From Escherichia phage vB-Eco-KMB43: 64,000 nt of DNA. The notes beneath the pieces were generated by a model. It ran no database searches, was not told where the DNA came from, and saw only the letters and a program-made list of their open reading frames with translations. This document shows positions 1,133-29,224 of this stretch, piece by piece. Position 1 is the stretch's first letter; the number at the start of each line of letters is the position of its first letter. The stretch is from sequence record OR525698.1, one strand, 5' to 3'. The position numbers and the translations under genes were made by a program.

Positions 1133-1343
1133 TTACCCCGAACTCGTTTACAATCTGCGCTTTATAGTAACCACCGCGAGATGCTAATAGATAAGCTGGG
1201 CTTAGGTATTCGTATTCGCGGATTTCTACTTGTGCGTTTTCAGTTTCCCAAATCAGTAAAGTCCACATATTTGATTCTCCTGTAAAGTTGTATCTCGTCT
1301 TGATGAATATAGTATAGGGGATCGCGAGATCCCCGTCAAGCAT
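1116..1343 (-). CDS. small hypothetical protein (likely 1116..1268, ATG at 1268)
   Basis: Track ORF start lies inside the promoter; internal ATG preceded by GGAGAATCAAAT RBS. Confidence 0.4.
   Translation of the reverse strand: MLDGDLAIPYTIFIKTRYNFTGESNMWTLLIWETENAQVEIREYEYLSPAYLLASRGGYYKAQIVNEFGVIEYEF
1311..1339 (-). promoter_or_regulatory. sigma70-type early promoter (TTGACG -17- TATACT), palindromic GGGGATC..GATCCCC spacer
   Basis: Reverse complement reads TTGACG gggatctcgcgatcccc TATACT; RBS and ATG follow. Confidence 0.6.
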
Positions 1344-1357
1344 TTATTTTAAAAATC

Positions 1358-1903
1358 TCAAAGTATTCTTTCTAGCCATTCGCGACCAGTCATATGAGTA
1401 CCCGCAATCATAAAATTATGGTCTGGCGAGGACCGAAACATATCTAAAATAAACTTCCGACATTCCTCATAGTCATCACGTTTAAGATAGACCACGTTCT
1501 CGCCAGTGCCAATAACTCCTTTACGATAGCCATGTTCTTTACGCGTAGACCATTGCACAGTATCCTTTTTAACTCGAATCACGATTGGTTCCCAATATCC
1601 AGCACATCCAGCATGACCACACGAACAAGTAAGGAAGTATTGACCCTTTGCTTTGTTCTCATCCCATCCAACATTAATCGGATAACATTCATGAAACAAT
1701 GCTAAAACATCATGTGTCTCGTCAATATCTTTATCGTCAATTCGTGCAGTAAACACCCAAACAGGGATCTTATTACCTATTGGTTCATAATCATCGCCCC
1801 ACTCGTCATAAATAGTTTCTAAGGTCATATCAATATTGATTGATTTTGCCGCGTCAATATGTCGTTGTGCTTTACGTTTACGGTTTAATGATTTCATAGT
1901 CAC
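1358..1903 (-). CDS. hypothetical protein (Cys/His-rich)
   Basis: ORF track; between nrdD and nrdG on the same strand; no motif recognised. Confidence 0.55.
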   Translation of the reverse strand: MTMKSLNRKRKAQRHIDAAKSINIDMTLETIYDEWGDDYEPIGNKIPVWVFTARIDDKDIDETHDVLALFHECYPINVGWDENKAKGQYFLTCSCGHAGCAGYWEPIVIRVKKDTVQWSTRKEHGYRKGVIGTGENVVYLKRDDYEECRKFILDMFRSSPDHNFMIAGTHMTGREWLERIL

Positions 1904-1914
1904 CTCACATTATT

Positions 1915-2454
1915 TCAAAGATCGCGATATTGTACATTATGAAAATGAGAACTTGCATTACCAATATTGTAGATAACAAATTCTTCATCCGGCGCTTGCG
2001 CTACAAATTGAGTATGAGCAACCGCCACAACCTTAAAAATACGATCCGTGATCTTGTGTTTAATTTCTGCCCCTACTTCCATAGGAACATATTCATTTGT
2101 TTCTGTTTCAGTCGCAAAACAGCCATCTTCTTCATAAGCACGAACAAATCGGTCGCAATCAGTACGCTTAACAAATTCAAGAGTATATAATTCTCGTGAA
2201 TTGTCGGTATAGACCAATACAGAATTATTATGATAGCGAATCACATACAGGTTATTATCATCGTCAATTACGCAAAAGCTACGGATTCCTTCGCCTTGAC
2301 TCCAGCAGATATTAACCACCGTTCCTCTAATAAAAAAACTTTCCTTTAAATTAAAACTAGCCAATGTGCTAGCGTGCATTTTAACAACAACGCCATCACC
2401 AATTTCCAGTTTACGAAGTTTAACTTCTTTGCTCAGTACACAAAACATCATCAT
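1915..2454 (-). CDS. hypothetical protein
   Basis: ORF track; preceded by promoter cassette and RBS. Confidence 0.55.
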   Translation of the reverse strand: MMMFCVLSKEVKLRKLEIGDGVVVKMHASTLASFNLKESFFIRGTVVNICWSQGEGIRSFCVIDDDNNLYVIRYHNNSVLVYTDNSRELYTLEFVKRTDCDRFVRAYEEDGCFATETETNEYVPMEVGAEIKHKITDRIFKVVAVAHTQFVAQAPDEEFVIYNIGNASSHFHNVQYRDL

Positions 2455-2483
2455 GTTATCCTCTCGTTGTTTTCGATGTGAGC

Positions 2484-2511
2484 ATTATACATTAGCTAAT
2501 CAGGTTGTCAA
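2484..2511 (-). promoter_or_regulatory. sigma70-type early promoter (TTGACA / TATAAT)
   Basis: tgtcaa at 2506-2511 and attata at 2484-2489 on the top strand; member of the repeated cassette family. Confidence 0.6.
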
Positions 2512-2520
2512 CACCCCAAA

Positions 2521-2550
2521 ACGAAAAAGCCGACCCTTTCGGATCGGCTG
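2521..2550 (-). terminator. rho-independent terminator after nrdD
   Basis: Hairpin GCCGATCC-gaaa-GGGTCGGC followed by a T-run on the minus strand. Confidence 0.7.
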
Positions 2551-2554
2551 AAAA

Positions 2555-4461: not shown

Positions 4462-4956
4462 TTATTTTACCAGTTCTGCTAATTCTTTTTCCGCCGCTTC
4501 CAGTTCAGCTTTCAGTTGTTTGATCTCTTGTCGCTTCTTATTAGCGGCTTCCTGCTTACTATTTCGGATAATCTGATCTAGATATGAATCCCACTCCTGA
4601 ATATTTTTGATAATGTAACCGTCAACATTAATTGGTCGGAGATTTAGTACAGCTTCCAGTTTAGTTGCAAAAACTTTAATTGCTGGTGTGAAGTATTCAT
4701 ACTCGTTATCTTCAAACCAATAGCCTAGACTTGCATTCTCAATACGAAGACGAAGTTCAAGATCAAGGTCTTTATCTTCGGTGTAAAGATCTTGCACATG
4801 CCCCATCGAACTAACAACAACTTTAAAACGAATTTTATCAACACCACCAAACACACCAGTAAGTATACCAGCAATTGAGCTATTAGCGCAAGATTGGTCG
4901 CTGAATGCGTCAAGGTTTTCTTTAGTTACAGTATACCAAACATCTTGTACCCACAT
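4462..4956 (-). CDS. hypothetical protein with C-terminal coiled coil
   Basis: ORF track; C-terminal heptad-like tail (KQLKAELEAAEKELAELVK) similar in character to tails of 5011..6189 and 6246..6830. Confidence 0.55.
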   Translation of the reverse strand: MWVQDVWYTVTKENLDAFSDQSCANSSIAGILTGVFGGVDKIRFKVVVSSMGHVQDLYTEDKDLDLELRLRIENASLGYWFEDNEYEYFTPAIKVFATKLEAVLNLRPINVDGYIIKNIQEWDSYLDQIIRNSKQEAANKKRQEIKQLKAELEAAEKELAELVK

Positions 4957-4980
4957 AATATAATCCTCTCGTTGTTAAGT

Positions 4981-5014
4981 GGGAGTATTATAGCATACTC
5001 CCTTCGCATGTCAA
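4981..5014 (-). promoter_or_regulatory. early promoter with inverted repeat GGGAGTAT..ATACTCCC spanning the -10
   Basis: tgtcaa at 5009-5014; perfect 8 bp inverted-repeat arms at 4981-5002. Confidence 0.55.
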
Positions 5015-6189
5015 ACACTAACTTTTTTCTTTACTGCTTTCACCTTCTGGCGAATTGCTCGAATCTCTTCGATCTCTTTTTCAGTCTCTTTAACAATTTC
5101 TTTGCGATTCTGAATATCTGTATCTAGATTCTCATCGAGTTTAGGAAGCATGTCGATCAAGAACTTTTTAAGGTCTTTCAGGTTGCGAATAACAGTACCT
5201 TCACCCATTACCGCAACACCCACACCATCCGGCAGATCACCAAACAGCTTAACCAGTTCAGACAGATGATCATGATCTTCTAGTGCTTCTTCCGGTTCAG
5301 ATGGCAGTTCAACAAAGTTATAACGTTCATCATTGCTGATCAAGTGATACCAGCAAAGCCCGAAAGATTTCGGTGTATATTCTACACCATCAATTTCAAC
5401 CGCGTCAACACTTCCATAATCATCTACTTTAGTTACCTTAAATCCTTGTCCCAGCTTTTGAACAATTTCAACAACATGACTTGATACAGTTTCAGCGGTA
5501 AACCAATATGGCAAATTATGCTGATTTGGCTTGTAGCGTTCACCTACTTTAAATCTCTGACCATCCGCTTGCATAGCATGAAATTGTTGTTGCGTGATTT
5601 CCGCGAAGTATTCAAATTCGCTACCGTCAAACAAGCAATTCCATTGATCACAAAAACGATCTGCCTTAACAGTTTCACCTTTCGCGGTGATCATGGTAGC
5701 TGATCCGTGCAATTCTTCTTCAACTAAAAAGCCATATTCGACAAAATCAACAAGTTTCATAGCTTCTTTGTGATCTGGATCATGCTCTCCCCAGAATCGC
5801 TTAAATTCTTGCAAACCTTCTGGGGTAAACGAATAACATTTACCTTTTTCAAAGTAAGTCGGCATTGCATCCTCTTTCTTGTTCATCGCTTCGTATGCCT
5901 CTTTTGAGATACGTTTAAAGTATTTGCGCTCATTGTTCATAATCATAGTAGCCCAATAATCCACAATATCATTAGCGGAATAAACTACATCTCCAGCTTC
6001 AATAGTAATAACATGACCGTGGTCATCTTTTTCTAATACTTTAAAGCCCTTTTCTACGATTTCAGCAACCCGAATATGACCACGGCGCGAAGCATCGGTC
6101 AGAATAATTGAATAGCGAGAAAAGTCTAGAAACTCATCTTTACCGCCTTCACGGAATGCATAGTAATGACCTTCAAAGAATTTAGCCAT
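5011..6189 (-). CDS. hypothetical protein with three copies of an ~80 aa repeat domain
   Basis: Internal repeats (YYAFREGG...KGFKVLEKDDHGHV; QGFKVTKVDDYGSVDAVEIDGVEYTPKSF) shared with ORFs 6246..6830 and 6839..7159. Confidence 0.65.
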   Translation of the reverse strand: MAKFFEGHYYAFREGGKDEFLDFSRYSIILTDASRRGHIRVAEIVEKGFKVLEKDDHGHVITIEAGDVVYSANDIVDYWATMIMNNERKYFKRISKEAYEAMNKKEDAMPTYFEKGKCYSFTPEGLQEFKRFWGEHDPDHKEAMKLVDFVEYGFLVEEELHGSATMITAKGETVKADRFCDQWNCLFDGSEFEYFAEITQQQFHAMQADGQRFKVGERYKPNQHNLPYWFTAETVSSHVVEIVQKLGQGFKVTKVDDYGSVDAVEIDGVEYTPKSFGLCWYHLISNDERYNFVELPSEPEEALEDHDHLSELVKLFGDLPDGVGVAVMGEGTVIRNLKDLKKFLIDMLPKLDENLDTDIQNRKEIVKETEKEIEEIRAIRQKVKAVKKKVSV

Positions 6190-6204
6190 AATATAATCCT
6201 CTCG

Positions 6205-6239
6205 TTGTTTAGATGGGAGTATCTTACTACTCCCGTTTC
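6205..6239 (-). promoter_or_regulatory. early promoter (TTGACA -17- TAAGAT) with inverted repeat GGGAGTA..TACTCCC over the -10
   Basis: tgtcaa at 6234-6239; atctta at 6211-6216; inverted repeat 6205-6224. Confidence 0.6.
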
Positions 6240-6245
6240 ATCATG

Positions 6246-6830
6246 TCAAGCGTTAAATGACTTTTGGATCTCTTTCAGTTCAGCTACTTTATCGGCGCTA
6301 TATTTTGCTTGATGTTCCATGCGCTTAAGCTCACCTTTGATATAGGTTTCTAGCTTAGGTTTATTCTCAATCAGAAAATCTTTCAAGTCATCGGCATTTT
6401 TAAAGTATAGCTGATTGTCAAAGCTAAAATCTTCCAGCGTCAATGATACCAAAGAAGACTTCGCAAACAAGTTAATCAGACCTTCCAGAGATTCTTCTTT
6501 CTTAACTGGTTTCATTTCTTCAAACTGCTTTTTAGTGATGCGTTTAAAGTATTTGCGCTCGTTTGCAGCAATCAGAACAGATGCACCTTCATACCCATGA
6601 GTTTCTACCAGATACACACGCCCCATCGCATCAACAGTGAGAACTTTAAAGCCGTTACAAAGCACGTCATACAAGAACTTATTATGTTGCGGACATCGTT
6701 TGATAAATTCTGCGGCTGTTTCTGCACTACGGAAAGTGTAATAACGACCTCGTTCAAAAACAGCATCATTTGAAGACTTAGCCGGATACAATTTATACGT
6801 TTTCTGTACCATAATATAATCCTCTATCAT
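6246..6830 (-). CDS. hypothetical protein, paralog of 5011..6189 (one repeat domain plus helical tail); probable start 6812
   Basis: Shares NERKYFKRI(S/T)K and GFKVL motifs with neighbour; internal ATG at 6812 (MVQKTYK). Confidence 0.6.
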   Translation of the reverse strand: MIEDYIMVQKTYKLYPAKSSNDAVFERGRYYTFRSAETAAEFIKRCPQHNKFLYDVLCNGFKVLTVDAMGRVYLVETHGYEGASVLIAANERKYFKRITKKQFEEMKPVKKEESLEGLINLFAKSSLVSLTLEDFSFDNQLYFKNADDLKDFLIENKPKLETYIKGELKRMEHQAKYSADKVAELKEIQKSFNA

Positions 6831-6838: not shown

Positions 6839-7159
6839 TTAAACAGCACGGAACAGAATGCGCTCACACGGAAGCAGCATAAATTCCCAACGCGGGTCAA
6901 AGTCTTTAGCGGTGTATGTTTTCCCATCAACCGCTATTTCACTTACATAACCAACAGGTGACACTTTAAGAACAGTAAACCCATTCTTGATGACTTCGTA
7001 GGTATCTTTCACCCCTTCGTATTCATCATCTAAGAAGTCTTTATGTGCTTGCTCAGATTTAAAAACATAGGCCACACCGGATTTAAACATCTTACGCATT
7101 GTTGATTCTCCTTCTTGATTAGATGGGAGTATTTTACTACTCCCATTTCTTATTGTCAA
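6839..7159 (-). CDS. small hypothetical protein, single repeat domain of the same family (probable CDS 6839..7099)
   Basis: Track start is TTG inside the promoter -35; ATG at 7099 (MRKMFKS) has GGAGAATCAACA RBS; NGFTVLKVSPVGYVSEIAVDGKTYTAKDF matches the family repeat. Confidence 0.5.
   Translation of the reverse strand: MTIRNGSSKILPSNQEGESTMRKMFKSGVAYVFKSEQAHKDFLDDEYEGVKDTYEVIKNGFTVLKVSPVGYVSEIAVDGKTYTAKDFDPRWEFMLLPCERILFRAV
7125..7159 (-). promoter_or_regulatory. early promoter with GGGAGTA..TACTCCC inverted repeat
   Basis: tgtcaa at 7154-7159; inverted repeat 7125-7144. Confidence 0.55.
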
Positions 7160-7162
7160 CTA

Positions 7163-7651
7163 CTATCTTAATCTTTGTATGAATTGTTTCTTATACTTCT
7201 TCGTGATTTCTTCTCGTGTATCAGCGTCACAGTAATCGAAACCTTCTGCGTCCATAATATCAACCATCTCCGCGCGTGTCAAGCGTGAAAATCGTTTTAC
7301 TTTATCAACGGCATATTGAGGATGTAAATGATTGTTGGTGTAGTCTCCTTTGATGTAATTAACATAGTTTGTAGCCCAAACAACGAAATCAGCACCTAAA
7401 GCACCAACACCAAACCGTTTAAAGTCTCCGGTCAACGATCCTTCTAGGCGGTTGCAACACGAATGAAGCAATCCCCTTACTCGGCCTTGCCCTTTCCCAT
7501 CTAGATCATGATCATGGTCAAGATGGTTTTTGCTCATATCCTCAAAAAGTGGCAATTGACAAAGGGGGCAAATGCCCCCCTGTTTTTCGAATAGTTCTTG
7601 TTTGTACTCTTTAGCACTCTTAGCAGTCAGTAACATAAATTCACCCTCCAA
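7163..7651 (-). CDS. 49: recombination endonuclease VII (Holliday junction resolvase)
   Basis: CPLCQ...NHLDHDHDLDG...GRVRGLLHSCCN motifs match T4 gp49 as recalled (zinc site plus His-Me finger). Confidence 0.9.
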   Translation of the reverse strand: MEGEFMLLTAKSAKEYKQELFEKQGGICPLCQLPLFEDMSKNHLDHDHDLDGKGQGRVRGLLHSCCNRLEGSLTGDFKRFGVGALGADFVVWATNYVNYIKGDYTNNHLHPQYAVDKVKRFSRLTRAEMVDIMDAEGFDYCDADTREEITKKYKKQFIQRLR

Positions 7652-10741: not shown

Positions 10742-11050
10742 TTATTTCACGTTAACGCCGTCATCAATCCAGCCGACGCTATTTGGTTTAACAGTTTTAC
10801 CATAGGATGCATACTTAATCAAGCATGGTTTAACATCATTATCAAATCTTCCTAAACGTACTCCCAAATCAGGAATATCCATGTATGCGGCTTTATATCC
10901 CCATGTGCCATATTCAGAATCAATCTCAACCGGACGGCCTTTAAAAGCATACACTACACCGTGACGGTCAACGATAACATAACAATAACCAGCCGGAAGA
11001 TACACAGTTTCGCCGTAAACTTTAACTGGAGTAGCAGAAGAGATAAACAT
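10742..11050 (-). CDS. hypothetical protein
   Basis: ORF track; preceded by promoter cassette at 11085-11113. Confidence 0.55.
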   Translation of the reverse strand: MFISSATPVKVYGETVYLPAGYCYVIVDRHGVVYAFKGRPVEIDSEYGTWGYKAAYMDIPDLGVRLGRFDNDVKPCLIKYASYGKTVKPNSVGWIDDGVNVK

Positions 11051-11084
11051 AATATAATCCTCACATCGTTCATTTGATGCGGCT

Positions 11085-11113
11085 ATTATAGATTAACCGC
11101 ATTTTCATGTCAA
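11085..11113 (-). promoter_or_regulatory. sigma70-type early promoter (TTGACA -17- TATAAT)
   Basis: tgtcaa at 11108-11113 and attata at 11085-11090. Confidence 0.65.
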
Positions 11114-11120
11114 ACAGTTT

Positions 11121-11495
11121 TTAAAAATCTTCTTCCGGTTTATATCGACCGTCATCGACTGGTTTTGGACTGAATCCTTTATGCGTGCGCGGCTTCGCTT
11201 CCGGTTTACCAGCAATCATCAAACCAAAACATTTCAGCCCCTTATAACACATAACAATATCAACCACGGTCCACGTTATAGGCCATAAGATTGCAGCAAT
11301 ACAAAATGCTCCTGTATCGACCTCTTTGGTGTCCTTGTCGAATCTGGCGTACAAGCAGAATACTAGATACGAGATCATTGCACCAGTAGTCCAGATATAA
11401 AGCACATTAACAATATCTTGTGTTGTCACATTATCCTCCTTACATGTCTTGCAGTGCATAAAAGCATTTTTCTTCGTAGTCATAGAAAATGTCAA
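11121..11495 (-). CDS. hypothetical membrane protein (start uncertain, possibly ATG at 11483 or 11459)
   Basis: ORF track; hydrophobic segments; track start is TTG. Confidence 0.45.
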   Translation of the reverse strand: MTFSMTTKKNAFMHCKTCKEDNVTTQDIVNVLYIWTTGAMISYLVFCLYARFDKDTKEVDTGAFCIAAILWPITWTVVDIVMCYKGLKCFGLMIAGKPEAKPRTHKGFSPKPVDDGRYKPEEDF

Positions 11496-11775
11496 AGTAT
11501 GCTTTTTCTACATACTCACCATTGATCCAAGCGGCAGTAACAATCAGAGTGGTCCAGTTAGATCCGCTCTCAACGGTAAAGGTTTTAATACCCAGCTTCA
11601 CAGCAAGGTCACGAGCAAACTGGTCACAACCACGGCAGGAAGTGATATTGGAAGTTTTGATTTTAAAGCCACCGCGAGTTTTAGAAATTTCTACTTTAGC
11701 GAAAGACAGGTTGCTCATTTTGATTCTCCTTAAGAAAGTGTGTTTCGTTTTGATGTGTGTAGTATAGGGGATCAC
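11440..11775 (-). CDS. hypothetical protein (probable CDS 11440..11718)
   Basis: Internal ATG at 11718 (MSNLSFAKV) with GGAGAATCAAA RBS and promoter cassette upstream. Confidence 0.55.
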   Translation of the reverse strand: MIPYTTHIKTKHTFLRRIKMSNLSFAKVEISKTRGGFKIKTSNITSCRGCDQFARDLAVKLGIKTFTVESGSNWTTLIVTAAWINGEYVEKAYFDIFYDYEEKCFYALQDM

Positions 11776-11789
11776 CGATCCCCTGTCAA
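11761..11789 (-). promoter_or_regulatory. early promoter (TTGACA -17- TATACT), spacer GGGATC..GATCCC palindrome
   Basis: tgtcaa at 11784-11789; agtata at 11761-11766. Confidence 0.6.
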
Positions 11790-11806
11790 CAACTTTTTTT
11801 ATGATT

Positions 11807-12127
11807 TTAGTGAATTAACTCTACACCAAAATGAGGCACAGAGAACGCCTTACGAAACACATATTCATCATGTTTAGGAATCGCGCCTAACCTCTCTATT
11901 TCGCTCGCTAACACGATAAACTGTTTATCTGGTGCATATGCCTTGTGTGCTTCAACAACGCACGGAAAACGCGTTTTAGAGAGTTCTGGATAGTTTTCTG
12001 AATCCAGAAGGACAATGAATACCCTGTTACATTGATTGTAGAATCCTGTTTTTGATTTCATCAAGTTTTCTTCTCTGTACAATTCGTGCAATCTTCCTTT
12101 CATGATTTCGTTGGTTCTTGTCTTCAC
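11807..12127 (-). CDS. hypothetical protein (start probably 12103 or 12061)
   Basis: ORF track; overlaps 3' end of next ORF in another frame. Confidence 0.45.
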   Translation of the reverse strand: MKTRTNEIMKGRLHELYREENLMKSKTGFYNQCNRVFIVLLDSENYPELSKTRFPCVVEAHKAYAPDKQFIVLASEIERLGAIPKHDEYVFRKAFSVPHFGVELIH

Positions 12128-12622: not shown

Positions 12623-12632
12623 AATATAATCC

Positions 12633-13767: not shown

Positions 13768-14029
13768 TACATGCTTTTAATGCATCAGTCGCGGTGTCAT
13801 AGCGAGTATTATCATAGCACCAATAACCATCTGTCAACTGATAAATTAATCCATCCTTTTTAGCGTCGATGAAAGACAATTCTTTGAAAGTTTCTACTTT
13901 CTTTGCTGATACTCCACGGTCACGGCGTTTATAGAGTTTAGCTAAAACGCGTTCAGCTTGTTCCTCTTTATCGCCAGACAGATCCCAGATGACGTTTCTG
14001 ATATGCTTGATTAATTGTTCAGTGGTCAT
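13739..14029 (-). CDS. hypothetical protein
   Basis: ORF track; promoter cassette and RBS upstream. Confidence 0.55.
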   Translation of the reverse strand: MTTEQLIKHIRNVIWDLSGDKEEQAERVLAKLYKRRDRGVSAKKVETFKELSFIDAKKDGLIYQLTDGYWCYDNTRYDTATDALKACNDHLRKTSI

Positions 14030-14059
14030 ATTTGATTCTCCTTAGTTGGTATGGTTATC

Positions 14060-14088
14060 ATTATACGGGGATTTCTCCCCGTGTCAAC
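14060..14088 (-). promoter_or_regulatory. early promoter (TTGACA -17- TATAAT), spacer GGGGA..TCCCC palindrome
   Basis: tgtcaa at 14083-14088; attata at 14060-14065. Confidence 0.65.
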
Positions 14089-14090
14089 AA

Positions 14091-14312
14091 TTAAATGATC
14101 TCTGCTTCACCGTTAAGGAAGAAAGACCATGTTTTGTTAGGATAGCGAAGCGCCCATGATTCAGCAGTTTTAACACCAGCTTCAAACAATTGACGGCTGG
14201 TTACTTTAGCCATACCATCTTCGATGGCAACGTTTTCAATAATCATCGGGTACTTAGCGCCACGCATGAAACCGAAGCCAGCGGAAGATTTGATAATTTT
14301 AACAGTTGCCAT
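14091..14312 (-). CDS. small hypothetical protein, distant member of the YEWCF-like family
   Basis: Similar size and pattern (GFMRGAKYPMIIEN...AGV) to 12365..12845 ORFs; own promoter. Confidence 0.5.
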   Translation of the reverse strand: MATVKIIKSSAGFGFMRGAKYPMIIENVAIEDGMAKVTSRQLFEAGVKTAESWALRYPNKTWSFFLNGEAEII

Positions 14313-14353
14313 TTTTGATTCTCCTAGAAAGTGTATCTCGTTTCGATGTGTGT

Positions 14354-14382
14354 ATTATGCAATAACACAGGATCGCTGTCAA
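14354..14382 (-). promoter_or_regulatory. early promoter (TTGACA -17- CATAAT) with conserved leader
   Basis: tgtcaa at 14377-14382; leader CATCGAAACGA...GGAGAATCAAAAATG. Confidence 0.65.
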
Positions 14383-14400
14383 CACTTTCTAAGAAAAATT

Positions 14401-14685
14401 TTAAACTAATCGAATGTAGCCCAGAATTTCAGCACCTTTAGCCAGACCTAAAACTTCCCATTCAAGGTCGCCGTAGTCATAATTTGCAACCATCAACTGA
14501 CCATTTTTCATGCAGCAATCATGAGAGAAAATTTGCCCCGCATAAACTACGATAGTAATAAACTTTCCTGATTCTGGCGGTGTGGAAGACAAAGCGACCA
14601 TATGACCATTCAGCTTAGTCACCAGTGATGGAACAATAAAATTCGGGCTTACCTGAATACCGTTAAATTCGTTTGTGTCTTTCAT
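14401..14685 (-). CDS. hypothetical protein
   Basis: ORF track. Confidence 0.5.
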   Translation of the reverse strand: MKDTNEFNGIQVSPNFIVPSLVTKLNGHMVALSSTPPESGKFITIVVYAGQIFSHDCCMKNGQLMVANYDYGDLEWEVLGLAKGAEILGYIRLV

Positions 14686-15367: not shown

Positions 15368-15566
15368 TCTTCACGGTCTCCATAATTGTTTTGTAAGCCA
15401 GTTTAAGATGATCACCGAAAAACTTTGCGGTGTTACCCTTCGGATCGCGGAGCATGGTTTCTACGATCTCATCGGCAGTAACAATTTCTCCTTTCTTTGC
15501 TGCATGTTCTACCATATACTTCAAAGTTTCTTCGGAAGCAAGTGCTGCCGCTACTGGATTAATCAT
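15357..15566 (-). CDS. small hypothetical protein
   Basis: ORF track; promoter cassette and RBS upstream. Confidence 0.5.
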   Translation of the reverse strand: MINPVAAALASEETLKYMVEHAAKKGEIVTADEIVETMLRDPKGNTAKFFGDHLKLAYKTIMETVKNAK

Positions 15567-15595
15567 TTTTGATTCTCCTTTGTTGTCGATGTGTG

Positions 15596-15625
15596 CATTA
15601 TGCTATACCCTATTCCGGTTGTCAA
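15596..15625 (-). promoter_or_regulatory. early promoter (TTGACA -17- CATAAT)
   Basis: tgtcaa at 15620-15625; conserved leader and RBS. Confidence 0.65.
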
Positions 15626-15631
15626 CACCTA

Positions 15632-15664
15632 AAAACGAAAAAGCCACCCTTTCGGATGGCTTTT
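15632..15664 (-). terminator. hairpin terminator (usable in both directions)
   Basis: GCCACCC-tttc-GGATGGC stem flanked by A-run and T-run. Confidence 0.65.
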
Positions 15665-18769: not shown

Positions 18770-19360
18770 TCAATAGCGTTTAGTCTTAAGAATGCCTTTA
18801 CTCTTTAGATGGTTAGCCTTTTTTAGTACGTCATCAGCATAACCTAATCCGGCTTTATAGTTCCATCCAGCATTGTAAGAAGCTAGCGCGAGTCGGATAT
18901 TACCGTTTCGAACATCCAGCCAGTATGCTAACTCATCCATCGCGTAGAATGCAGAAACCTCGCGATTCATGATAAAGTTGATAGTCTGGCGATCACTCAT
19001 TTTAACACCGCGCTTTGCATTTTTCGCTTTCACCGTTTTAAGGTAATTTTGAAATAATCCATAAGCATGATGATTTTTCTTTGGTGCTAAGTTTGCACCC
19101 GCGCTTGATTCTTGCCATGCGATACCCGCCAGGATGTGACCTAAACCCTTTCCGTTATAGCGAATATTCGGATGGTCCTTTTTCAACTTACCGCTTTTCT
19201 CGAATTGCTCGCCGTATTGATAGGCGAAATGTAAATTATCTAGTTGGTGTGCTGTAAAGTTGTCTATCGGCGCTTTTTTGATCGGTGCGCTAGTCGATGC
19301 GTGTGTAGCACCAACGGCTAGTGACAGACTCAATACTATCGCTTTTAGAACTTTTAACAT
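18770..19360 (-). CDS. secreted lytic transglycosylase-like protein (SLT domain)
   Basis: Signal peptide, then AWQESS, GLFQ and YNAG motifs typical of family 1 lytic transglycosylases. Confidence 0.6.
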   Translation of the reverse strand: MLKVLKAIVLSLSLAVGATHASTSAPIKKAPIDNFTAHQLDNLHFAYQYGEQFEKSGKLKKDHPNIRYNGKGLGHILAGIAWQESSAGANLAPKKNHHAYGLFQNYLKTVKAKNAKRGVKMSDRQTINFIMNREVSAFYAMDELAYWLDVRNGNIRLALASYNAGWNYKAGLGYADDVLKKANHLKSKGILKTKRY

Positions 19361-19446
19361 TAATTTCTCCTGTTTGGCTTAACTTTCTGATTCCATAATA
19401 TAGCCCTATCACCAGAAAGTCAAGCATTATTTTTAACCAATTTCCA

Positions 19447-19941
19447 TTATTGGTCTACCTTCAAAACAACCGCCGACATTTTACCCGCCAGTCGTTTTGG
19501 ATTCTCTATAATCATTCGACAGCATAGACCGTGATACGGCTTGCCGTCTTCAATTAGGTCTACTGTCATCCCGATCCACATGTTACCGTCAGTAATTTCT
19601 AATCGATTAGGTCGGTCTTCCATTTTCAGGAAGTCGAAGATCTCCGGCAAACGAGTTTCTATCTTATTGAATAGTTCCATTGTCTTATGTTCATCGATAT
19701 GACGATCGGTTAGACGGTCGATCATATGCGGACTAAAGCGAATAAAAATATACTCACCATAACCATCATTCAAACACTTTTCTTTGATCTGCGCATTGGT
19801 TTTGCGCATTTCGGTTTCGAAGAATCTACGCAGCTTACTACGGCGAACATGTACGTTAATTGTTTCCATTTTATTATCCTTTCTTAAACAAATTGCGAAT
19901 CCAGTATACAAACGGGATTTCTTTAAACTTGAACTTGTCAA
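19447..19941 (-). CDS. hypothetical protein (probable CDS 19447..19869)
   Basis: Internal ATG at 19869 (METINVH) preceded by AGGA RBS. Confidence 0.5.
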   Translation of the reverse strand: MTSSSLKKSRLYTGFAICLRKDNKMETINVHVRRSKLRRFFETEMRKTNAQIKEKCLNDGYGEYIFIRFSPHMIDRLTDRHIDEHKTMELFNKIETRLPEIFDFLKMEDRPNRLEITDGNMWIGMTVDLIEDGKPYHGLCCRMIIENPKRLAGKMSAVVLKVDQ

Positions 19942-20269
19942 TAGTTAATTCTTTAGTAGCAAGATGAATACCATAAGCATCATGTGTAACTATATGCCAT
20001 TTTCTATAGTCCAAATGTGAACAACCGTCTGGATCTAGGTTAATAAGAGTTTCTCTCTCACTAGGATTATTTTTCCACAATTTTGTAATAGGATCGCACA
20101 TAATTCGACCTAGCGTACCATGAATAATCTCACAACGGTAAAGTTTTCCAGCAGTGAGATAGGCGCACCCGTCATAGTCGGTATAAACAAACACTTCTTT
20201 AACACTCATTTTAATACTCCTTTGTTGTTTCGATGGGGGTATATTACTACCCCCGATCATGTGTGTCAA
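19874..20269 (-). CDS. small hypothetical protein, GCSHL family (probable CDS 19874..20209)
   Basis: Track start lies in the promoter; ATG at 20209 with GGAGTATTAAA RBS; DPDGCSHLDYRKWHIV motif. Confidence 0.5.
   Translation of the reverse strand: MTHMIGGSNIPPSKQQRSIKMSVKEVFVYTDYDGCAYLTAGKLYRCEIIHGTLGRIMCDPITKLWKNNPSERETLINLDPDGCSHLDYRKWHIVTHDAYGIHLATKELTIDKFKFKEIPFVYWIRNLFKKG
20241..20269 (-). promoter_or_regulatory. early promoter (TTGACA -17- TAATAT) with GGGGGTA..TACCCCC inverted repeat
   Basis: tgtcaa at 20264-20269; inverted repeat 20235-20254. Confidence 0.6.
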
Positions 20270-20530
20270 CTACTTTTTCAAGATTTTTTTGATTGCATTC
20301 CAAAGACCTTTATTTCCAGGTTGTTTTGGTTCTTCGATCAGTGTCCATGTTCGACCGTCTAAGTGTGCACAATTTTTAAGACAAATAAAAATCTGGTGTC
20401 CCTTATCATCACGGATATAACCACTATTCGCAAATCTTTCATGTGGTGTATATTCATACAGTGTATTAGGTGTAATATACTTGCGGTTACTATAAGGTGT
20501 CATCACATACATCATGGTACTAACTCCCAA
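20270..20530 (-). CDS. small hypothetical protein, GCSHL family paralog
   Basis: CLKNCAHLDGRTWTLIEEP motif shared with neighbours. Confidence 0.5.
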   Translation of the reverse strand: MGVSTMMYVMTPYSNRKYITPNTLYEYTPHERFANSGYIRDDKGHQIFICLKNCAHLDGRTWTLIEEPKQPGNKGLWNAIKKILKK

Positions 20531-21426: not shown

Positions 21427-21470
21427 AATTAAACCCTCAGTTGATTAAGAGATTGCATCATATCATCATA

Positions 21471-21504
21471 AAACGAAAAAGCCAACCCTTTTCGGATTGG
21501 CTTG
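21471..21504 (-). terminator. rho-independent terminator after the grcA-like gene
   Basis: GCCAATCC-gaaaa-GGGTTGGC hairpin followed by a T-run on the minus strand. Confidence 0.65.
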
Positions 21505-23194: not shown

Positions 23195-23239
23195 TTTATA
23201 ATCCTCACAAAGCCAGCGATTAAGCTGGCTTGATTTTAG

Positions 23240-23629
23240 TTATACCGGGTCTGGATATACCTTTTTATCGAGTTCCATATGCGGTCCGTCTTTAAAAGTA
23301 ACCCAATCAACACCGCAGATAACAGGAACACCCAATTCTCGACCAGCTTGTTTAAATGCATCCGCGATCATGCGGTAGTATTTCATGTTCCATGTATCCT
23401 TATCTTTCGGATACGCTACAACGTCAACCGCGAAACCGTGAAGATGACGAGATTTCATAGTCTTAGATTTACCTTCCGCAACATATTTCTTTTGCGTTTC
23501 TAGACTACGTACACCTTCCGTAATACCAAAATCGACCGGAGTCAGTTCTAACGCACGATGAACGACTTTTACCAGGTCAGGATGCACACCAACAAGCCGA
23601 TCTTTGCTTCTTTGAGATAATTTAAACAT
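23240..23629 (-). CDS. peptidase M15-like protein (VanY/L-Ala-D-Glu peptidase fold), candidate endolysin
   Basis: SRHLHGFAVDV and DWVTFKDGPHMEL resemble the H-x6-D...H zinc site of M15 peptidases; no signal peptide. Confidence 0.6.
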   Translation of the reverse strand: MFKLSQRSKDRLVGVHPDLVKVVHRALELTPVDFGITEGVRSLETQKKYVAEGKSKTMKSRHLHGFAVDVVAYPKDKDTWNMKYYRMIADAFKQAGRELGVPVICGVDWVTFKDGPHMELDKKVYPDPV

Positions 23630-25848: not shown

Positions 25849-25856
25849 AATATACC

Positions 25857-26183
25857 TTAGAAAGAAACAGTTTTCAAGAAATCCAGATTTTTAGTACCGA
25901 AAACAGAAAAGTAGTGTTCTCCTTTTTCGGTTTTAGAGAAAGCGATTGTCTTCTCTACATGGTGACGGAAGCCAGACAGACGATCACCCAGGTCAAGGCG
26001 GCAAGCGTAAGTAGTGCCGTTTTCGAAAGTAACCTCGATTTGAGTTTTGTCATATTCGCTTTCATAGGCTTTTGCTGCTGCGTCCTGTGCTTTACGCTCG
26101 AAGTCTTCGAAGTGGAATACTTCGTTTGCGTTAGCGAATACAGAAGATTCAGAGAAGATAACTTTAACAGATACTGGTTTCAT
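25857..26183 (-). CDS. hypothetical protein
   Basis: ORF track; promoter cassette with conserved leader upstream. Confidence 0.55.
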   Translation of the reverse strand: MKPVSVKVIFSESSVFANANEVFHFEDFERKAQDAAAKAYESEYDKTQIEVTFENGTTYACRLDLGDRLSGFRHHVEKTIAFSKTEKGEHYFSVFGTKNLDFLKTVSF

Positions 26184-26225
26184 TTTGATACTCCTTAGTA
26201 GTTCGTGTTTCGTTTCGATGGGTGT

Positions 26226-26254
26226 ATTATGCTATACACCCTCTCTCGTGTCAA
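26226..26254 (-). promoter_or_regulatory. early promoter (TTGACA -17- CATAAT) with conserved leader
   Basis: tgtcaa at 26249-26254; attatg at 26226-26231. Confidence 0.65.
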
Positions 26255-26262
26255 CAACTTTT

Positions 26263-26451
26263 TTAGTCTTTTTTCATAATTTCTAGAGCTGTTTCTACAG
26301 CACCTTTCCAACCCTCCCACATAATGGACATAGTAAGGAAGTTAAAGCACCCGCAGGAATCAACCTTTTTAGAGATAAACCATTCTACAAACGCTTCGCT
26401 CATACCATGCTCTTTAGCGGATTCGCGTAATTGTTCAATTTGGTCTTCCAT
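26263..26451 (-). CDS. small hypothetical protein
   Basis: ORF track. Confidence 0.45.
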   Translation of the reverse strand: MEDQIEQLRESAKEHGMSEAFVEWFISKKVDSCGCFNFLTMSIMWEGWKGAVETALEIMKKD

Positions 26452-26473
26452 AGTATCACCTCAACACTTAACG

Positions 26474-26668
26474 TTATTCAAACTCAAACGGTCTATTCAA
26501 CCTATTGTAAAAGTACATATAACAAGCAAAATTATGCTTTGGCTGTACCGTATCAGATAGACACGCTTTTACAGCCTCGCGGTCCGATGGGTCTACACCC
26601 TCAGCTTTAAGTAATGCTAAAATCTGGTTATAGCGTACTCTTAGTTGTACTAATGGTTTATCCCCCAT
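26474..26668 (-). CDS. small hypothetical protein
   Basis: ORF track. Confidence 0.45.
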   Translation of the reverse strand: MGDKPLVQLRVRYNQILALLKAEGVDPSDREAVKACLSDTVQPKHNFACYMYFYNRLNRPFEFE

Positions 26669-26677
26669 ATTACCCCC

Positions 26678-26905
26678 TTATAGTTGATCAGCAATGTATG
26701 CGGTGCATTTGCGGAGTTTAGCCATAGCACCACCTTTCATGTCGCTTGCGCCTACAATGTTCATGATCTCTAAGCGATCAGCCGGATTCAGTCTAGTAGC
26801 CCAGATCTGGTTAGCCAGTTCCATTTTACCCATCTGCGGTTCCATCTCAAACATTTCACGCTCAAAGTCGATAATTTCTTTTGCTGCGTCTTTAAAGTTA
26901 ATCAT
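26678..26905 (-). CDS. small hypothetical protein
   Basis: ORF track; promoter upstream. Confidence 0.5.
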   Translation of the reverse strand: MINFKDAAKEIIDFEREMFEMEPQMGKMELANQIWATRLNPADRLEIMNIVGASDMKGGAMAKLRKCTAYIADQL

Positions 26906-26934
26906 TTTGGTCCTCCCGTTTCGTTGATGGTTGT

Positions 26935-26963
26935 ATTGTAGGGGAGTTATCCTCCCATGTCAA
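26935..26963 (-). promoter_or_regulatory. early promoter (TTGACA -17- TACAAT)
   Basis: tgtcaa at 26958-26963; spacer contains GGGAG..CTCCC. Confidence 0.55.
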
Positions 26964-26971
26964 CACTTTTA

Positions 26972-27157
26972 TCAGAAATATGCAATATAGTTTGCCAGTC
27001 CTACAGAGTCATCATTCGGCATTGCTTTTACCGCCAGTTCAAACCCTGCTTCAACTTTCTGTTTAGCGGATTCTTCGTTATAACCCCAGATGACCAGAAT
27101 AGCTACTACGTTTTCTTTGCTTACTGCTTTCAGTGCTTTAGTGATGCGACGTGCCAT
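26972..27157 (-). CDS. small hypothetical protein
   Basis: ORF track; promoter and conserved leader upstream. Confidence 0.5.
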   Translation of the reverse strand: MARRITKALKAVSKENVVAILVIWGYNEESAKQKVEAGFELAVKAMPNDDSVGLANYIAYF

Positions 27158-27203
27158 AATTTGATTCTCCGTTTAAGAAAGCGTGTTTCGTTTCGATGGG
27201 TGT

Positions 27204-27232
27204 ATTATGCTATAGGCGTGATCTGGTGTCAA
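27204..27232 (-). promoter_or_regulatory. early promoter (TTGACA -17- CATAAT) with conserved leader
   Basis: tgtcaa at 27227-27232; leader CATCGAAACGAAACAC...GGAGAATCAAATTATG. Confidence 0.65.
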
Positions 27233-27258
27233 CAACTTTTTTAAAAAAATTTTAGGCA

Positions 27259-27286
27259 ATAAAAAAGCCACTCCGAAGAGTGGCTT
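27259..27286 (-). terminator. rho-independent terminator (UUCG tetraloop hairpin)
   Basis: AGCCACTC-ttcg-GAGTGGCT perfect 8 bp stem followed by a T-run on the minus strand. Confidence 0.75.
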
Positions 27287-27290
27287 ATAG

Positions 27291-27434
27291 GGAAGGTAGC
27301 GAATCTTCCTTGTCTCCAACCTGCTAGCGGCCTAGCAAGTGAATGCTTTAGCGTACCGGATCACCCCATACGCTGTAATAAATGCGGCTAGGTGACGTCC
27401 AAATCATTCTAACCGCGCTGTCTTTAGTTCACTA
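27291..27434 (-). ncRNA. ORF-free structured 3' region, possible small RNA (speculative)
   Basis: 144 nt without ORF between gene end and terminator; several local stem-loops (GGAAGG..CTTCC; GCGGCTAG..CTAACCGC). Confidence 0.2.
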
Positions 27435-27653
27435 TTATTTATATCGCTTTCTCTCGCGACGTTTTTGATCTTCTTCCTTGATAGAGTTAAACGCATCAAA
27501 AAGACACATGACACTGATAATGAACATAACCGTATTTTCTACGATATCCCACGGCTTCGCATCAGTACAGATCCCCCAAACGGTAAGAAATGCAAATAGT
27601 GCAGAAGAGATCACAAGCATGATACTTGCTAAGATATAAAAAGTCATTTTCAT
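27435..27653 (-). CDS. small membrane protein
   Basis: ORF track; hydrophobic N-terminal half, basic tail. Confidence 0.45.
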   Translation of the reverse strand: MKMTFYILASIMLVISSALFAFLTVWGICTDAKPWDIVENTVMFIISVMCLFDAFNSIKEEDQKRRERKRYK

Positions 27654-27844
27654 GGTTTTACCTCAATTCTTCGATATTCATCACACATCCACGCAGTAAG
27701 CAAGAATCCCAGCACATAAGCAACAAAATACGTTAATGCTTCTTCTGGTTCGGTGCTATGCGCCATCATCAGACCAGCGAGAAAGGTCTTAACAATTACA
27801 TTTAAAATAATTAGCCACGCAAATAATTTCATCGTTTGCCCCAT
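27650..27844 (-). CDS. tiny hydrophobic membrane protein
   Basis: ORF track. Confidence 0.45.
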   Translation of the reverse strand: MGQTMKLFAWLIILNVIVKTFLAGLMMAHSTEPEEALTYFVAYVLGFLLTAWMCDEYRRIEVKP

Positions 27845-28068
27845 TTCGGTCGAGTCTTTTCAAACTTATACATCCCGTAACAATCTCGAATCATCCACGT
27901 AACAAGAGCACCAGTCAACACAGACAATACACAGAAGAAGTAAAACGGTCCGGTTGCATTATCAACATGAGCAAGCCAGGTAAAGAAAACACATGCTAAG
28001 AATGTGAAGAACATCATAAAACACAAGAAAGCAAAATATTTTATGCTACTCATAGCGCCACCATACAA
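27829..28068 (-). CDS. small membrane protein
   Basis: ORF track. Confidence 0.45.
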   Translation of the reverse strand: MYGGAMSSIKYFAFLCFMMFFTFLACVFFTWLAHVDNATGPFYFFCVLSVLTGALVTWMIRDCYGMYKFEKTRPKWGKR

Positions 28069-28156
28069 CAGATCATAAGAAAACCCAACGCAATAAGAAT
28101 TGCATCAAATTTAGTGAACTCCGGTCCACATATCAACATCATTCGTTCCTGTTCAT

Positions 28157-28399
28157 TCATAGATCACAGAGCCATCTTAAAGCACCACATAAAGCGAGCA
28201 GAATACTAGGTATAAACGAGATCAAAACAAGTTTGCAAAAATCATCTAAGGTAATACCGGAATAGATACCAACTGTAACAACACCGATCATCAGACACAG
28301 AAAGAAAACAAATGCAATCAGAAACAAAGTATTGCTAAACAGTTTAGTGATCATTAGACACCCCACGACGATCAATTTCAAAAACTTTTTTATCATCAA
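28157..28399 (-). CDS. small membrane protein
   Basis: ORF track. Confidence 0.45.
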   Translation of the reverse strand: MMIKKFLKLIVVGCLMITKLFSNTLFLIAFVFFLCLMIGVVTVGIYSGITLDDFCKLVLISFIPSILLALCGALRWLCDL

Positions 28400-28547
28400 C
28401 GAAGCATGTCACAACTGCCTCGTTGACTTCCGCAAATTGTTGTGTTACCCACTTAAGGTCAGAGCGAAACAATGTTCTATTAATAACAAATGTTTTACCT
28501 TTCTTATCCATACCCATAAATTTTGCTTTAACCATATCCAATTCCAT
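28344..28547 (-). CDS. dmd: Dmd-like antitoxin (inhibitor of host RnlA/LsoA-type toxins)
   Basis: MEL.KV.FMG...DD..W.TQQ.AEVN.A.V..F.DDKKV.E.D.RG pattern matches T4 Dmd along its full length as recalled. Confidence 0.75.
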   Translation of the reverse strand: MELDMVKAKFMGMDKKGKTFVINRTLFRSDLKWVTQQFAEVNEAVVTCFVDDKKVFEIDRRGVSNDH

Positions 28548-28556
28548 ATTATCACC

Positions 28557-28715
28557 TTATTTGCTAATCGCTAAACCCAATCCGAAGAGAGCACCCGATG
28601 CTACAGTATACCCGAAAGTTTCAAAGGCAGTAAAGATATCTAAGCCGCCAGCTAACAGAGTTGCAGTAAACAGAGTACCAGCTACGAACATAAAAGTTTT
28701 ACCGATAAATTTCAT
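28557..28715 (-). CDS. possible tiny hydrophobic/Gly-rich protein (~52 aa), not in the ORF track
   Basis: ATG at 28715 preceded by GGAGAATCAAA RBS and promoter cassette. Confidence 0.4.
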   Translation of the reverse strand: MKFIGKTFMFVAGTLFTATLLAGGLDIFTAFETFGYTVASGALFGLGLAISK

Positions 28716-28747
28716 TTTGATTCTCCTTTCGTTTGTTTGTGGGGGGT

Positions 28748-28776
28748 ATCTTACTACCCCCGTTTCATGTTGTCAA
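28748..28776 (-). promoter_or_regulatory. early promoter (TTGACA -17- TAAGAT) with GGGGGTA..TACCCCC inverted repeat
   Basis: tgtcaa at 28771-28776; inverted repeat 28741-28761. Confidence 0.6.
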
Positions 28777-28782
28777 CTGTTT

Positions 28783-29157
28783 TTAAGAAAATTTTACTTC
28801 GTCTACAATGTCTTTCATGACATTGATTTCCATTCCGGTCAGAACACGTTGGAACATGTGCTGCACATACGCTTTCAGGTATTCATTTGATGGCTTGCTA
28901 TCGAAAGTCTTTTTAGTGTAGTAGTCATCACCGAAAGCTACTGTAATTACATTTTCGTCGTCGTTCCAAGCGATATAAGCAAATTTGCCGTTATCCCAGA
29001 AGCGAGCACTAATTGCTACTTTTGTTGAATCGAATCCTACTTCGCTGTGAGATTCAAGAACTACTTGCGTGCCAGTTTCTTTATGAATGTAGTAGCGGGA
29101 TACTAAGTCAAAGTTACGGGTGTAGTGACATTCGAATTTATCTTTAAACATCATCAT
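28783..29157 (-). CDS. hypothetical protein
   Basis: ORF track; promoter cassette and RBS upstream. Confidence 0.55.
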   Translation of the reverse strand: MMMFKDKFECHYTRNFDLVSRYYIHKETGTQVVLESHSEVGFDSTKVAISARFWDNGKFAYIAWNDDENVITVAFGDDYYTKKTFDSKPSNEYLKAYVQHMFQRVLTGMEINVMKDIVDEVKFS

Positions 29158-29195
29158 TTTTGATTCTCCTAAGTGTGTTTCGTTTCGATATGTGC

Positions 29196-29224
29196 ATTAT
29201 GCTATAGTCGTTTATGGTTGTCAA
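29196..29224 (-). promoter_or_regulatory. early promoter (TTGACA -17- CATAAT) with conserved leader
   Basis: tgtcaa at 29219-29224; attatg at 29196-29201. Confidence 0.65.

Follow-up and report, generated by a model that had tools for sequence, protein, structure and literature searches.

What are the near-consensus promoters that recur, with similar leaders, along the early region of a T4-type coliphage, and what might they do there? The question arises from a 64,000-nucleotide stretch of the Escherichia phage vB-Eco-KMB43 (OR525698.1), below called the window, in which 18 such cassettes were found. We identify them with high confidence as promoter-early stem-loops (PeSLs), the dispersed early-gene expression cassettes of RB49/Phi1-type phages. 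A first-pass annotation of the DNA had likened them to the PeSLs of some T4-type phages, and this comparison is borne out by the genus of the phage, by the published definition of PeSLs on Phi1 and RB49, and by the presence of all PeSL components. The array as such is already known and ordinary for the genus, and every feature by which a PeSL is recognized at the sequence level is present in it. What our analysis appears to add is an inventory, the exchange of the gene gp38 at one cassette, the restriction of RegB-type sites to the Shine-Dalgarno (SD) sequences of cassettes, and the recurrence of the leader across phage families.

Over bases 26000-30000 and 40000-48000 the window is 97-99.9% identical to genomes of Krischvirus (the T4-type coliphage group of RB49, Phi1 and JSE), among them GoldenSnicker, W115, LF73P4, FL04, Phi1 and JSE. 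Comparison with the Phi1, RB49 and JSE records showed that the early region, on the minus strand, occupies positions 1-33000 and runs from nrdG/nrdD through 57B, 57A, 1 and 3. Plus-strand baseplate genes come after this block, and the GC skew changes its sign at ~34 kb, consistent with the strand switch. The definition of PeSLs is based on Phi1 and RB49, whose genomes each carry ~52 of them, chiefly ahead of ORFans in hyperplastic regions and beside nrdD (Arbiol, Comeau, Kutateladze, Adamia, Krisch 2010, Genome Biol Evol 2:140; PMC2839356), and their components in this pair are near-perfect TTGACA-N17-TATAAT promoters with G(n)-loop-C(n) stems (PMC4122927). The cassettes of the window belong to the same genus, lie at orthologous loci and have the same components; they share with the published PeSLs the position of the stem-loop upstream of, between or overlapping the promoter boxes, the placement at ORFans and nrdD, and, at the gp38 site, the type of cassette-bounded swap. 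Nothing essential differs; this isolate has a set of swaps of its own, with no gp38 at the Phi1 position and extra HNH-AP2 genes. The PeSL and PmSL motifs of T4/PST and KVP40/nt-1 (Comeau, Arbiol, Krisch 2014; PMC4122927) are likewise composite promoter-terminator motifs around variable genes, but they have weaker consensus sequences (TTTACW.../TAYWAT and TTGYVH.../TAWWAT), another stem consensus, and stem-loops just upstream of the promoter.

Number and anatomy of the cassettes

The heptamer GTTGACA occurs 22 times in the window compared with 8.85 expected, a count that was reached in none of the shuffles, and 16 of the 22 occurrences lie on the minus strand below 29.3 kb. A profile made from 13 seed cassettes gave 17 matches at a threshold of E<1e-5 (E 1.6e-21 to 6e-6, with the next-best match no better than E=0.3), 16 of them on the minus strand (1252-29248) and one on the plus strand (42366-42454). 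With a weak unit at 19423 added, the minus strand carries 17 cassettes between 1266 and 29262, in agreement with the at least 17 annotated before, and the plus-strand cassette at 42351-42451 brings the total to 18. The 17 copies are located in the nrdG-to-57B early region, mostly ahead of hypothetical genes. An independent repeat finder returned the same repeat families (D1-D6 and D8), and a search of the whole window against Rfam gave no family at its gathering score. The strict composite pattern GTTGACA...TAATCATCG... has no match in the window, because five to six variable bases separate the -10 element from CATC.

In the window the sequence anatomy of the cassettes, their conservation and one swap were observed directly. 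The order within a unit is an A/T tract, GTTGACA, 16-17 nt, (T/C)ATAAT, 5 nt, CATC, an unstructured A/C-rich leader, the SD and ATG. The -35 element is TTGACA in 16 of the 18 units and follows the A/T-rich consensus AAAAAGTTG, the spacer measures 17 nt in 14 units and 16 nt in four, and the -10 element has A2 and T6 in all 18. On the minus strand, 11113-11085 is a perfect consensus promoter, TTGACA-17-TATAAT; cassettes 14087, 5014 and 2511 (minus) and 42392 (plus) also have the two consensus hexamers, set 16 nt apart. The upstream stop codon overlaps the -35 element or ends at most 44 nt before it in 17 of the 18 units, and throughout the set SD and ATG lie 29-46 nt downstream of the -10 element. 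The core of the leader is CATC at a constant position followed by an A/C-rich run; its 16-mer CATCGAAACGAAACAC is present in two exact copies (five at up to three mismatches), all within cassettes. Where a single SD form had been annotated, two SD modules alternate, (A)GGAGAATCAAA(A)ATG and GAGGATTATATTATG.

The copies had also been described as near-identical, which overstates their likeness. Gapless identity to a reference copy ranges from 60 to 89%, and the exact tract common to a pair of cassettes is at most 33 nt long (pair 26254/27232), with a median of 9 nt; the pair 6249/5014 has 23 nt of identity. Sub-families are 82-89% identical across 62-67 nt, a length that exceeds the functional core. 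The pairs 29157/2454 (ATGATGATGTTT) and 27157/42449 (ATGGCACGTCG) have their first codons in common, with the proteins diverging afterwards, and these codons may be traces of crossovers running into the coding start.

Judged by this anatomy, each cassette would be active in this phage. A unit of ~90-130 bp, filling the gap from one small early gene's stop codon to the start codon of the next, would provide an A/T-rich UP-like tract and a near-consensus sigma-70 promoter to the unmodified host RNA polymerase just after infection. The predicted transcription start is the A of CATC, 7 nt past the -10 element, and the unit would further supply a 23-40 nt unstructured A/C-rich leader and a strong SD. 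The stem-loop would terminate, attenuate or cap read-through RNA and thereby insulate each unit, whether it is a genuine intrinsic terminator preceding the promoter or a G-run/C-run hairpin that sits within the spacer or spans the -10 element. As direct repeats, ~17 in 28 kb, the cassettes would occasionally recombine with one another and so delete, insert or swap the genes that they flank. In lacZ fusions three Phi1/RB49 PeSL promoters were active and strong and one stem-loop attenuated transcription (PMC2839356); promoter strength, stem-loop termination and mini-circles have been shown by others for a few Phi1/RB49 PeSLs only. Our literature search found no transcription-start map for Krischvirus; early 5' ends of RB49, a relative and not this isolate, agree with the promoter consensus according to the account of Desplats et al. 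(2002) in Nolan et al. (2006), which goes part of the way to answering the refuting condition named by the first-pass annotation, mapped starts that miss the predicted -10/-35 elements.

Stem-loops, terminators and their conservation

GC stem-loops are present in 16 of the 18 units, with energies of -7.9 to -16 kcal/mol, in five cases upstream of the promoter, in four in the spacer and in seven over the -10 element. All of them finish upstream of the predicted +1 and would hence be carried only by RNA reading through from upstream. The terminators that the first-pass annotation had placed before four minus-strand cassettes were confirmed, with hairpins at 29262-29241, 27286-27265, 15664-15639 and 2549-2528. 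It had missed the G-run/C-run stem-loops embedded in 11 further cassettes (-7.9 to -13.1 kcal/mol), which are the hallmark of PeSLs.

To follow the conservation of these parts, the window was aligned with Phi1, RB49, JSE, G2248 and Cognac (n=5), and a site was counted as variable if it differs in at least one of the five relatives. Variable sites amount to 0% in the -10 element, 2% in the -35 element, 5.6% in the leader from +1 to +15, 4.7% from the SD to the ATG, 10.5% in the spacer and 16.7% at third codon positions; the difference between the leader and third codon positions has a P value of 8e-7. The changes in the spacer sit in loops and in the non-stem half, and the stems are retained, including G-U-compatible changes. 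At 14382, in the cassette at 14310..14407, one compensatory change from a T-A to a G-C pair is seen, with TGTGT/ACACA here and GGTGT/ACACC in the relatives. The retained stems and the compensatory pair favour a paired structure over a sequence-specific operator.

An operator would place a dimeric phage repressor, rather than an RNA or single-stranded DNA hairpin, at the palindromes of the spacer and -10 element. Their location between -35 and -10 is the classic one for an operator, and RB49-type phages, in which a MotA/middle-promoter system was not detected (Nolan et al. 2006), leave room for another kind of shut-off. Nevertheless, this explanation is very improbable and was largely rejected, as orthologues preserve the pairing and not the sequence, through changes that are in the loop, G-U-compatible or compensatory. 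The cassettes moreover have only the G-run/C-run in common, with the arm sequence, the loop (3-8 nt) and the position varying from one to the next, and five cassettes have a separate upstream terminator instead. The dispersal of the cassettes in multiple copies beside variable ORFans, for which Arbiol et al. (PMC2839356) drew the analogy to integron cassettes, could also suggest a small mobile element of the miniature inverted-repeat transposable element or integron attC type. Terminal inverted repeats and target-site duplications are absent, no transposase or integrase is encoded in the region, and all copies are co-oriented with transcription and lie exactly between a stop and a start codon, which makes a mobile element hardly conceivable; we rejected it for its missing inverted ends, target duplications and recombinase.

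The individual cassettes, on the minus strand except for one, can be grouped by their stem-loops. In the terminator-preceded cassette at 29155..29262 the hairpin is followed by a T-run, the -35 element at 29224-29219, CATAAT at 29201-29196, the leader tATCGAAACGAAACAC and AGGAGAATCAAAA, with the ATG at 29157. The one at 27155..27286 has CATAAT, the exact leader 16-mer and GGAGAATCAAATT ahead of ATG 27157, the one at 15564..15664 has CATAAT, a short leader and AGGAGAATCAAAA ahead of ATG 15566, and the one at 2452..2549, whose terminator lies just 3' of nrdD, has TTGACA-16-TATAAT and ATG 2454. The sole plus-strand cassette, at 42351..42451 within the baseplate/late block, comprises a terminator (42351-42378), TTGACA-16-TATAAT, the leader CATCTAAACAAC, GGAGGATAAATT and ATG 42449. 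The best four minus-strand terminator-like sites of the 14-30 kb interval are the cassette terminators there and the hairpin at 21503-21479, which belongs to a terminator of the same family (repeat family D5; 21457..21503) that has no strong promoter. This fifth terminator had been correctly located but called promoter-less; a weak TTGGCT-17-TGnTATGAT match overlaps its 3' arm.

Stem-loops between the -35 and -10 elements are those of cassettes 26963 (26903..26988; GGGAG/CTCCC at 26956-26942, ATG 26905), 14087 (14027..14112; ACGGGGA/TCCCCGT at 14082-14065), 11789 (11716..11814; AGGGGATC/GATCCCCT at 11784-11766, ATG 11718) and 1339 (1266..1364; GGGGATC/GATCCCC at 1334-1317, ATG 1268). Straddling the -10 element are those of cassettes 28776 (28713..28801; GGGGGTA/TACCCCC at 28761-28742 spanning TAAGAT, ATG 28715), 26254 (26181..26279; GGGTGTAT/ATACACCC at 26241-26220, with the exact leader 16-mer and ATG 26183), 20269 (20207..20294; GGGGGTA/TACCCCC at 20254-20235 over TAATAT, ATG 20209) and 7159 (7097..7184; ATGGGAGTA/TACTCCCAT at 7146-7123 over TAAAAT, ATG 7099). 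The same position is found in three cassettes with the SD module GAGGATTATATTATG, namely 11113 with its perfect promoter (11048..11138; stem-loop 11102-11077), 6249 (6187..6274; GGGAGTA/TACTCCC at 6234-6215, ATG 6189 of a frd.2 homologue) and 5014 (4954..5039; GGGAGTAT/ATACTCCC at 5002-4981, ATG 4956). In the cassette at 14310..14407 (ATG 14312) the stem across the -10 element is weak, and the weak, atypical unit at 19358..19448 (CTTGACT-17-TATTAT, ATG 19360 of a vs.1 homologue) has neither a GC stem-loop nor the CATC leader.

Gene exchange and RegB-type sites

Twelve indel or replacement events distinguish the window from the five relatives, and one of the 12 is a clean cassette-bounded swap. 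In Phi1, RB49, JSE and Cognac a terminator-gp38-terminator-promoter segment of 908 bp is located between ORF080 and ORF078. In the window and in G2248 one cassette with a spacer stem-loop, that at 14027..14112, replaces the segment, and homology picks up at the leader CATACCAAC. A tblastn search found no homologue of gp38, the long-tail-fibre adhesin, in the whole 64 kb window, and without it the phage may use a different adhesin arrangement. As gp38 is a host-range determinant, its removal at a cassette links the cassettes to host-range change.

A second event has its breakpoint at the upstream edge of cassette 1339 (1353/1354). The third is an indel hotspot at 15712-15784, just upstream of cassette 15625 and ~50 bp above its terminator; it is empty in the window and holds an additional 1986 bp in G2248, where a 2.1-kb gene occupies it, and 153 bp, the ORFan 84.1, in Phi1. 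Insertions of the HNH-AP2 or another homing-endonuclease type lie at 3538, 7954-8813, 21439, 22635-23278, 31756 and 32604, and in JSE a homing-endonuclease gene is found 20-30 bp downstream of the terminator at 21503-21479. Two minus-strand genes with HNH_3 and AP2 domains are among the largest differences from the relatives: the one at 7944-8699, between nrdC and dam, is absent in all five, and the one at 22619-23194 is present in JSE and G2248 and absent in Phi1, RB49 and Cognac. JSE and G2248 lack one of two tandem genes (the ORF074 deletion, 12623-12827), with an overlap of 18-19 bp at the junction, and the remaining events are divergent replacements. The two small tandem genes, at 12365-12845 on the minus strand, start with nearly identical 20 nt (ATGAARATTGAAATT). 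A repeat of the SD module was considered as the cause of the ORF074 deletion and rejected in favour of recombination between the alike 5' ends of the paralogues.

The case for recombination between cassettes comes chiefly from published work on mini-circles, which in Phi1 and RB49 run from PeSL to PeSL with crossovers between the -10 element and the SD/ATG, that is, within the leader (Arbiol et al. 2010, PMC2839356); in the window it is weakly visible.

The SD modules suggest a second layer of control. RegB together with S1 targets GGAGRAYARAA, that is, GGA(G/U) in single-stranded RNA with an A-rich heptamer (PMC1702504; PMC3014915). Allowing up to one mismatch, the minus strand contains 10 matches to this consensus against 2.5 expected, and nine of the 10 are cassette SDs. 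These nine all read GGAG(A/G)A(T/C)CAAA and match 10 of the 11 positions, as does the site of the plus-strand cassette, GGAGGATAAAT; among the SDs of non-cassette genes of the early region none matches the RegB consensus. SDs of the GGAGAATCAAA type thus match the cleavage consensus, and the GGAGAAUCAAA SDs are probable RegB/S1 targets. Cuts would be expected inside the GGAG of GGAGAAUCAAA sites and not at GAGGAUUAUAUU sites, and would turn promoter-proximal genes off after the early period. The gene regB itself is encoded at 19447..19869 on the minus strand (PF10715, E=1.5e-48), and its own SD, GGATAATAAAA, is a GGAU followed by AAUAAAA, a perfect A-rich tail; RB49 regB has such an SD, which is cleaved in vivo (PMC1702504; PMC3014915). 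Compared with the sites of T4 (Durand et al. 2006, PMC1702504; Uzan and Miller 2010, PMC3014915), the putative sites of the cassettes likewise combine GGAG at the SD with an A-rich heptamer. The confinement of RegB-type sites to promoter-proximal SDs would provide a simple model for immediate-early shut-off.

The conservation of the leader had been attributed either to recombination or to a shared 5' untranslated region (UTR) regulatory element. Each has some support, recombination from the mini-circles and a 5'-UTR element from the constraint among orthologues and the RegB-type SDs, and inactivation of promoter-proximal early messages by RegB is our candidate for such an element; the 5' part of the leader, as described below, also occurs in unrelated phages. 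The 15-nt module GAGGATTATATTATG is also found on the minus strand ahead of four genes that have no promoter cassette (25260, 13740, 12634 and 6824), which indicates that SD-spacer modules repeat independently of promoters.

Several points weigh against this account of the cassettes as PeSLs that insulate, exchange and time early genes. The 11 embedded stem-loops have no U-tract and are not canonical intrinsic terminators, and termination was tested by others for a single stem-loop only (PMC2839356). Five or six of the 12 events are homing-endonuclease insertions and one is a deletion between tandem paralogues. Most cassette pairs have less than 15 nt of exact identity and are poor substrates for homologous recombination. 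Of the cassette-bounded swaps that the first-pass annotation proposed to look for, the gp38 site is the one clean case, and over the 12 events the enrichment of breakpoints in cassettes was not significant (3/24 compared with 6.7% expected, P=0.21). Finally, position 8 of the RegB-type sites in the cassettes is C, whereas A is preferred there in the T4 consensus.

A leader anchored to the transcription start

The leader CATCGAAACGAAAC recurs after promoters of unrelated lytic phages (T1-like, other T4-like genera and jumbo) and not in host genomes, which is possibly a new observation. In IMG/VR the 16-mer CATCGAAACGAAACAC gave 79 exact matches at 71 loci, compared with 24 for a reversed-sequence control. 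Promoter and SD context, defined as a -10-like hexamer 4-7 nt upstream and an SD with a start codon downstream, was observed for 36 of the 72 evaluable matches and for 0 of 23 in the control (P=3e-6). The contigs with matches are Krischvirus-like, other T4-like-sized, 45-50 kb long and, in one case, 366 kb long. One of 46.5 kb is the T1-like Escherichia phage IME542 (Drexlerviridae), which has at least 10 promoter units of its own type, TAGCAC..TTGCTAAA..TATAGT, each followed by CATCGAAACGA (unit pattern TAGCAC(G/T)WWTTGCTAAA ... TATAGT/TATTAT, for example at 5235, 11722, 12866, 13236, 14987, 28921 and 40626). These units resemble PeSL-like dispersed cassettes in an unrelated family.

A 39-nt query, an idealised composite joined from the leader and SD parts of the cassettes, matched 720 phage records, among them Drexlerviridae (of Escherichia, Shigella and Klebsiella), KP27-type and Miller-type T4-likes, Felix O1-sized phages and Vibrio phages. 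With BLAST, the same composite had no match in 5,426 E. coli genomes. In total the leader was seen in Krischvirus, T1-like Drexlerviridae, Slopekvirus and Karamvirus-type T4-likes, 350-kb jumbo phages and some Vibrio phages, and more loosely at the T7 promoters A1 and A3. Among bacterial genomes the 16-mer is about as frequent as chance predicts and is scattered over random phyla; promoter and SD context was found for seven of 124 hits, of which five belong to one orthologous Vibrio gene. In these five Vibrio species the exact 16-mer lies 6 nt after a TATACT -10 element and upstream of a conserved 160-aa gene of the VOC/glyoxalase family, the only recurrent bacterial promoter context; by eye the upstream sequence is Fur box-like.

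Of 43 hits, 42 have exactly 5 nt from the -10 element to CATC, and the distance to the start codon varies between 27 and 46 nt; hence the motif is tied to the transcription start rather than to the ribosome site. The leaders contain 49% A and 10% G and are essentially without predicted structure. T7 A1 and A3 both have their annotated start on the A of CAT and read CATCGAGAGGGACAC and CATGAAACGACAG there, alike at 12 and 11 of 16 positions, respectively. The initial regions ATCGA.A.G.ACAC (A1) and ATGAAACGACAG (A3) (Hsu and Han 2025, PMC12464699) resemble ATCGAAACGAAACAC and have the same +1, but only 11-12 of 16 positions are in common, and a corresponding function in Krischvirus and the T1-like phages is putative. 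Near-consensus promoters are limited by escape, the initial transcribed sequence shifts their output 50-144-fold, and the purine-rich A1 escapes easily (PMC12464699). A search of the literature library for the leader string returned no paper with its 13-mers, and its 10-mers only in unrelated primers; the 2010 PeSL paper (PMC2839356) contains no mention of "leader", "untranslated" or "RegB", nor of a recurrence across families.

We tentatively propose, with somewhat less than even confidence, that the first ~15 transcribed nt, (A)UCGAAACGAAACAC, form a distinct and undescribed functional module that is directed at the host machinery and locked to the transcription start. Its role would likely be promoter escape from very tight promoters, a favourable mRNA 5' end, or both. 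Selection by the host machinery on the 5' leader would give conservation beyond that expected from recombination between copies. If functional, the leader would offer a short natural element for driving strong expression in enterobacteria and a handle on the limits of initiation at consensus promoters.

The leader could instead act mainly at the RNA level and not as a DNA element of promoter escape. Its A-rich 5' end, punctuated by C, would be a standby site for ribosomal protein S1 or the 30S subunit that boosts translation, and with GGAGAAUCAAA it would make up the region recognized by RegB/S1. Its A-rich, G-poor and essentially unstructured composition would suit this role, AACGAAA and AAUCAAA are similar to RAYARAA, the S1-dependent portion of the RegB/S1 site, and within the window the RegB-type sites occur at promoter-proximal SDs only. 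We consider this explanation unlikely, as the 5-nt gap fixes the motif to the -10 element and not to the SD, and a similar sequence opens the T7 A1 transcript ~430 nt upstream of the first gene.

The recurrence of the leader also bears on the cassettes as a whole, since each of them could independently be kept close to the optimum of the host polymerase and ribosome, through a consensus promoter, an initial transcribed sequence that eases escape, an unstructured leader and a strong SD, with recombination being incidental and changing the genome little. Such convergence would explain why the same +1-anchored leader follows different promoter types in unrelated phages, with its 36 of 72 matches in context against none of 23 in the control, at least 10 copies in IME542 and 720 records for the composite. 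The nearly invariant -10 gap next to a variable start-codon distance, the similar start regions of T7 A1 and A3 with the easy escape that the A1 sequence is known to allow, the non-significant breakpoint enrichment and the short exact homology between cassettes point in the same direction. However, the replacement at the gp38 site is cleanly bounded by a cassette, mini-circles join PeSL to PeSL with junctions between the -10 element and the SD/ATG (Arbiol et al., PMC2839356), and the identity within sub-families extends past the functional core. Convergence as the only cause is possible but rather doubtful; it is also compatible with the identification of the cassettes as PeSLs and does not exclude it.

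At the end of the early region, the divergent genes for gp4 (minus, ATG 33077) and gp53 (plus, ATG 33133) share one translation-initiation sequence, AGGGTGCTAAAATG, whose two copies make up a 14-bp inverted repeat around a promoter-like site, ATTGATA-16-TATAAT, at 33076-33135 of the window.

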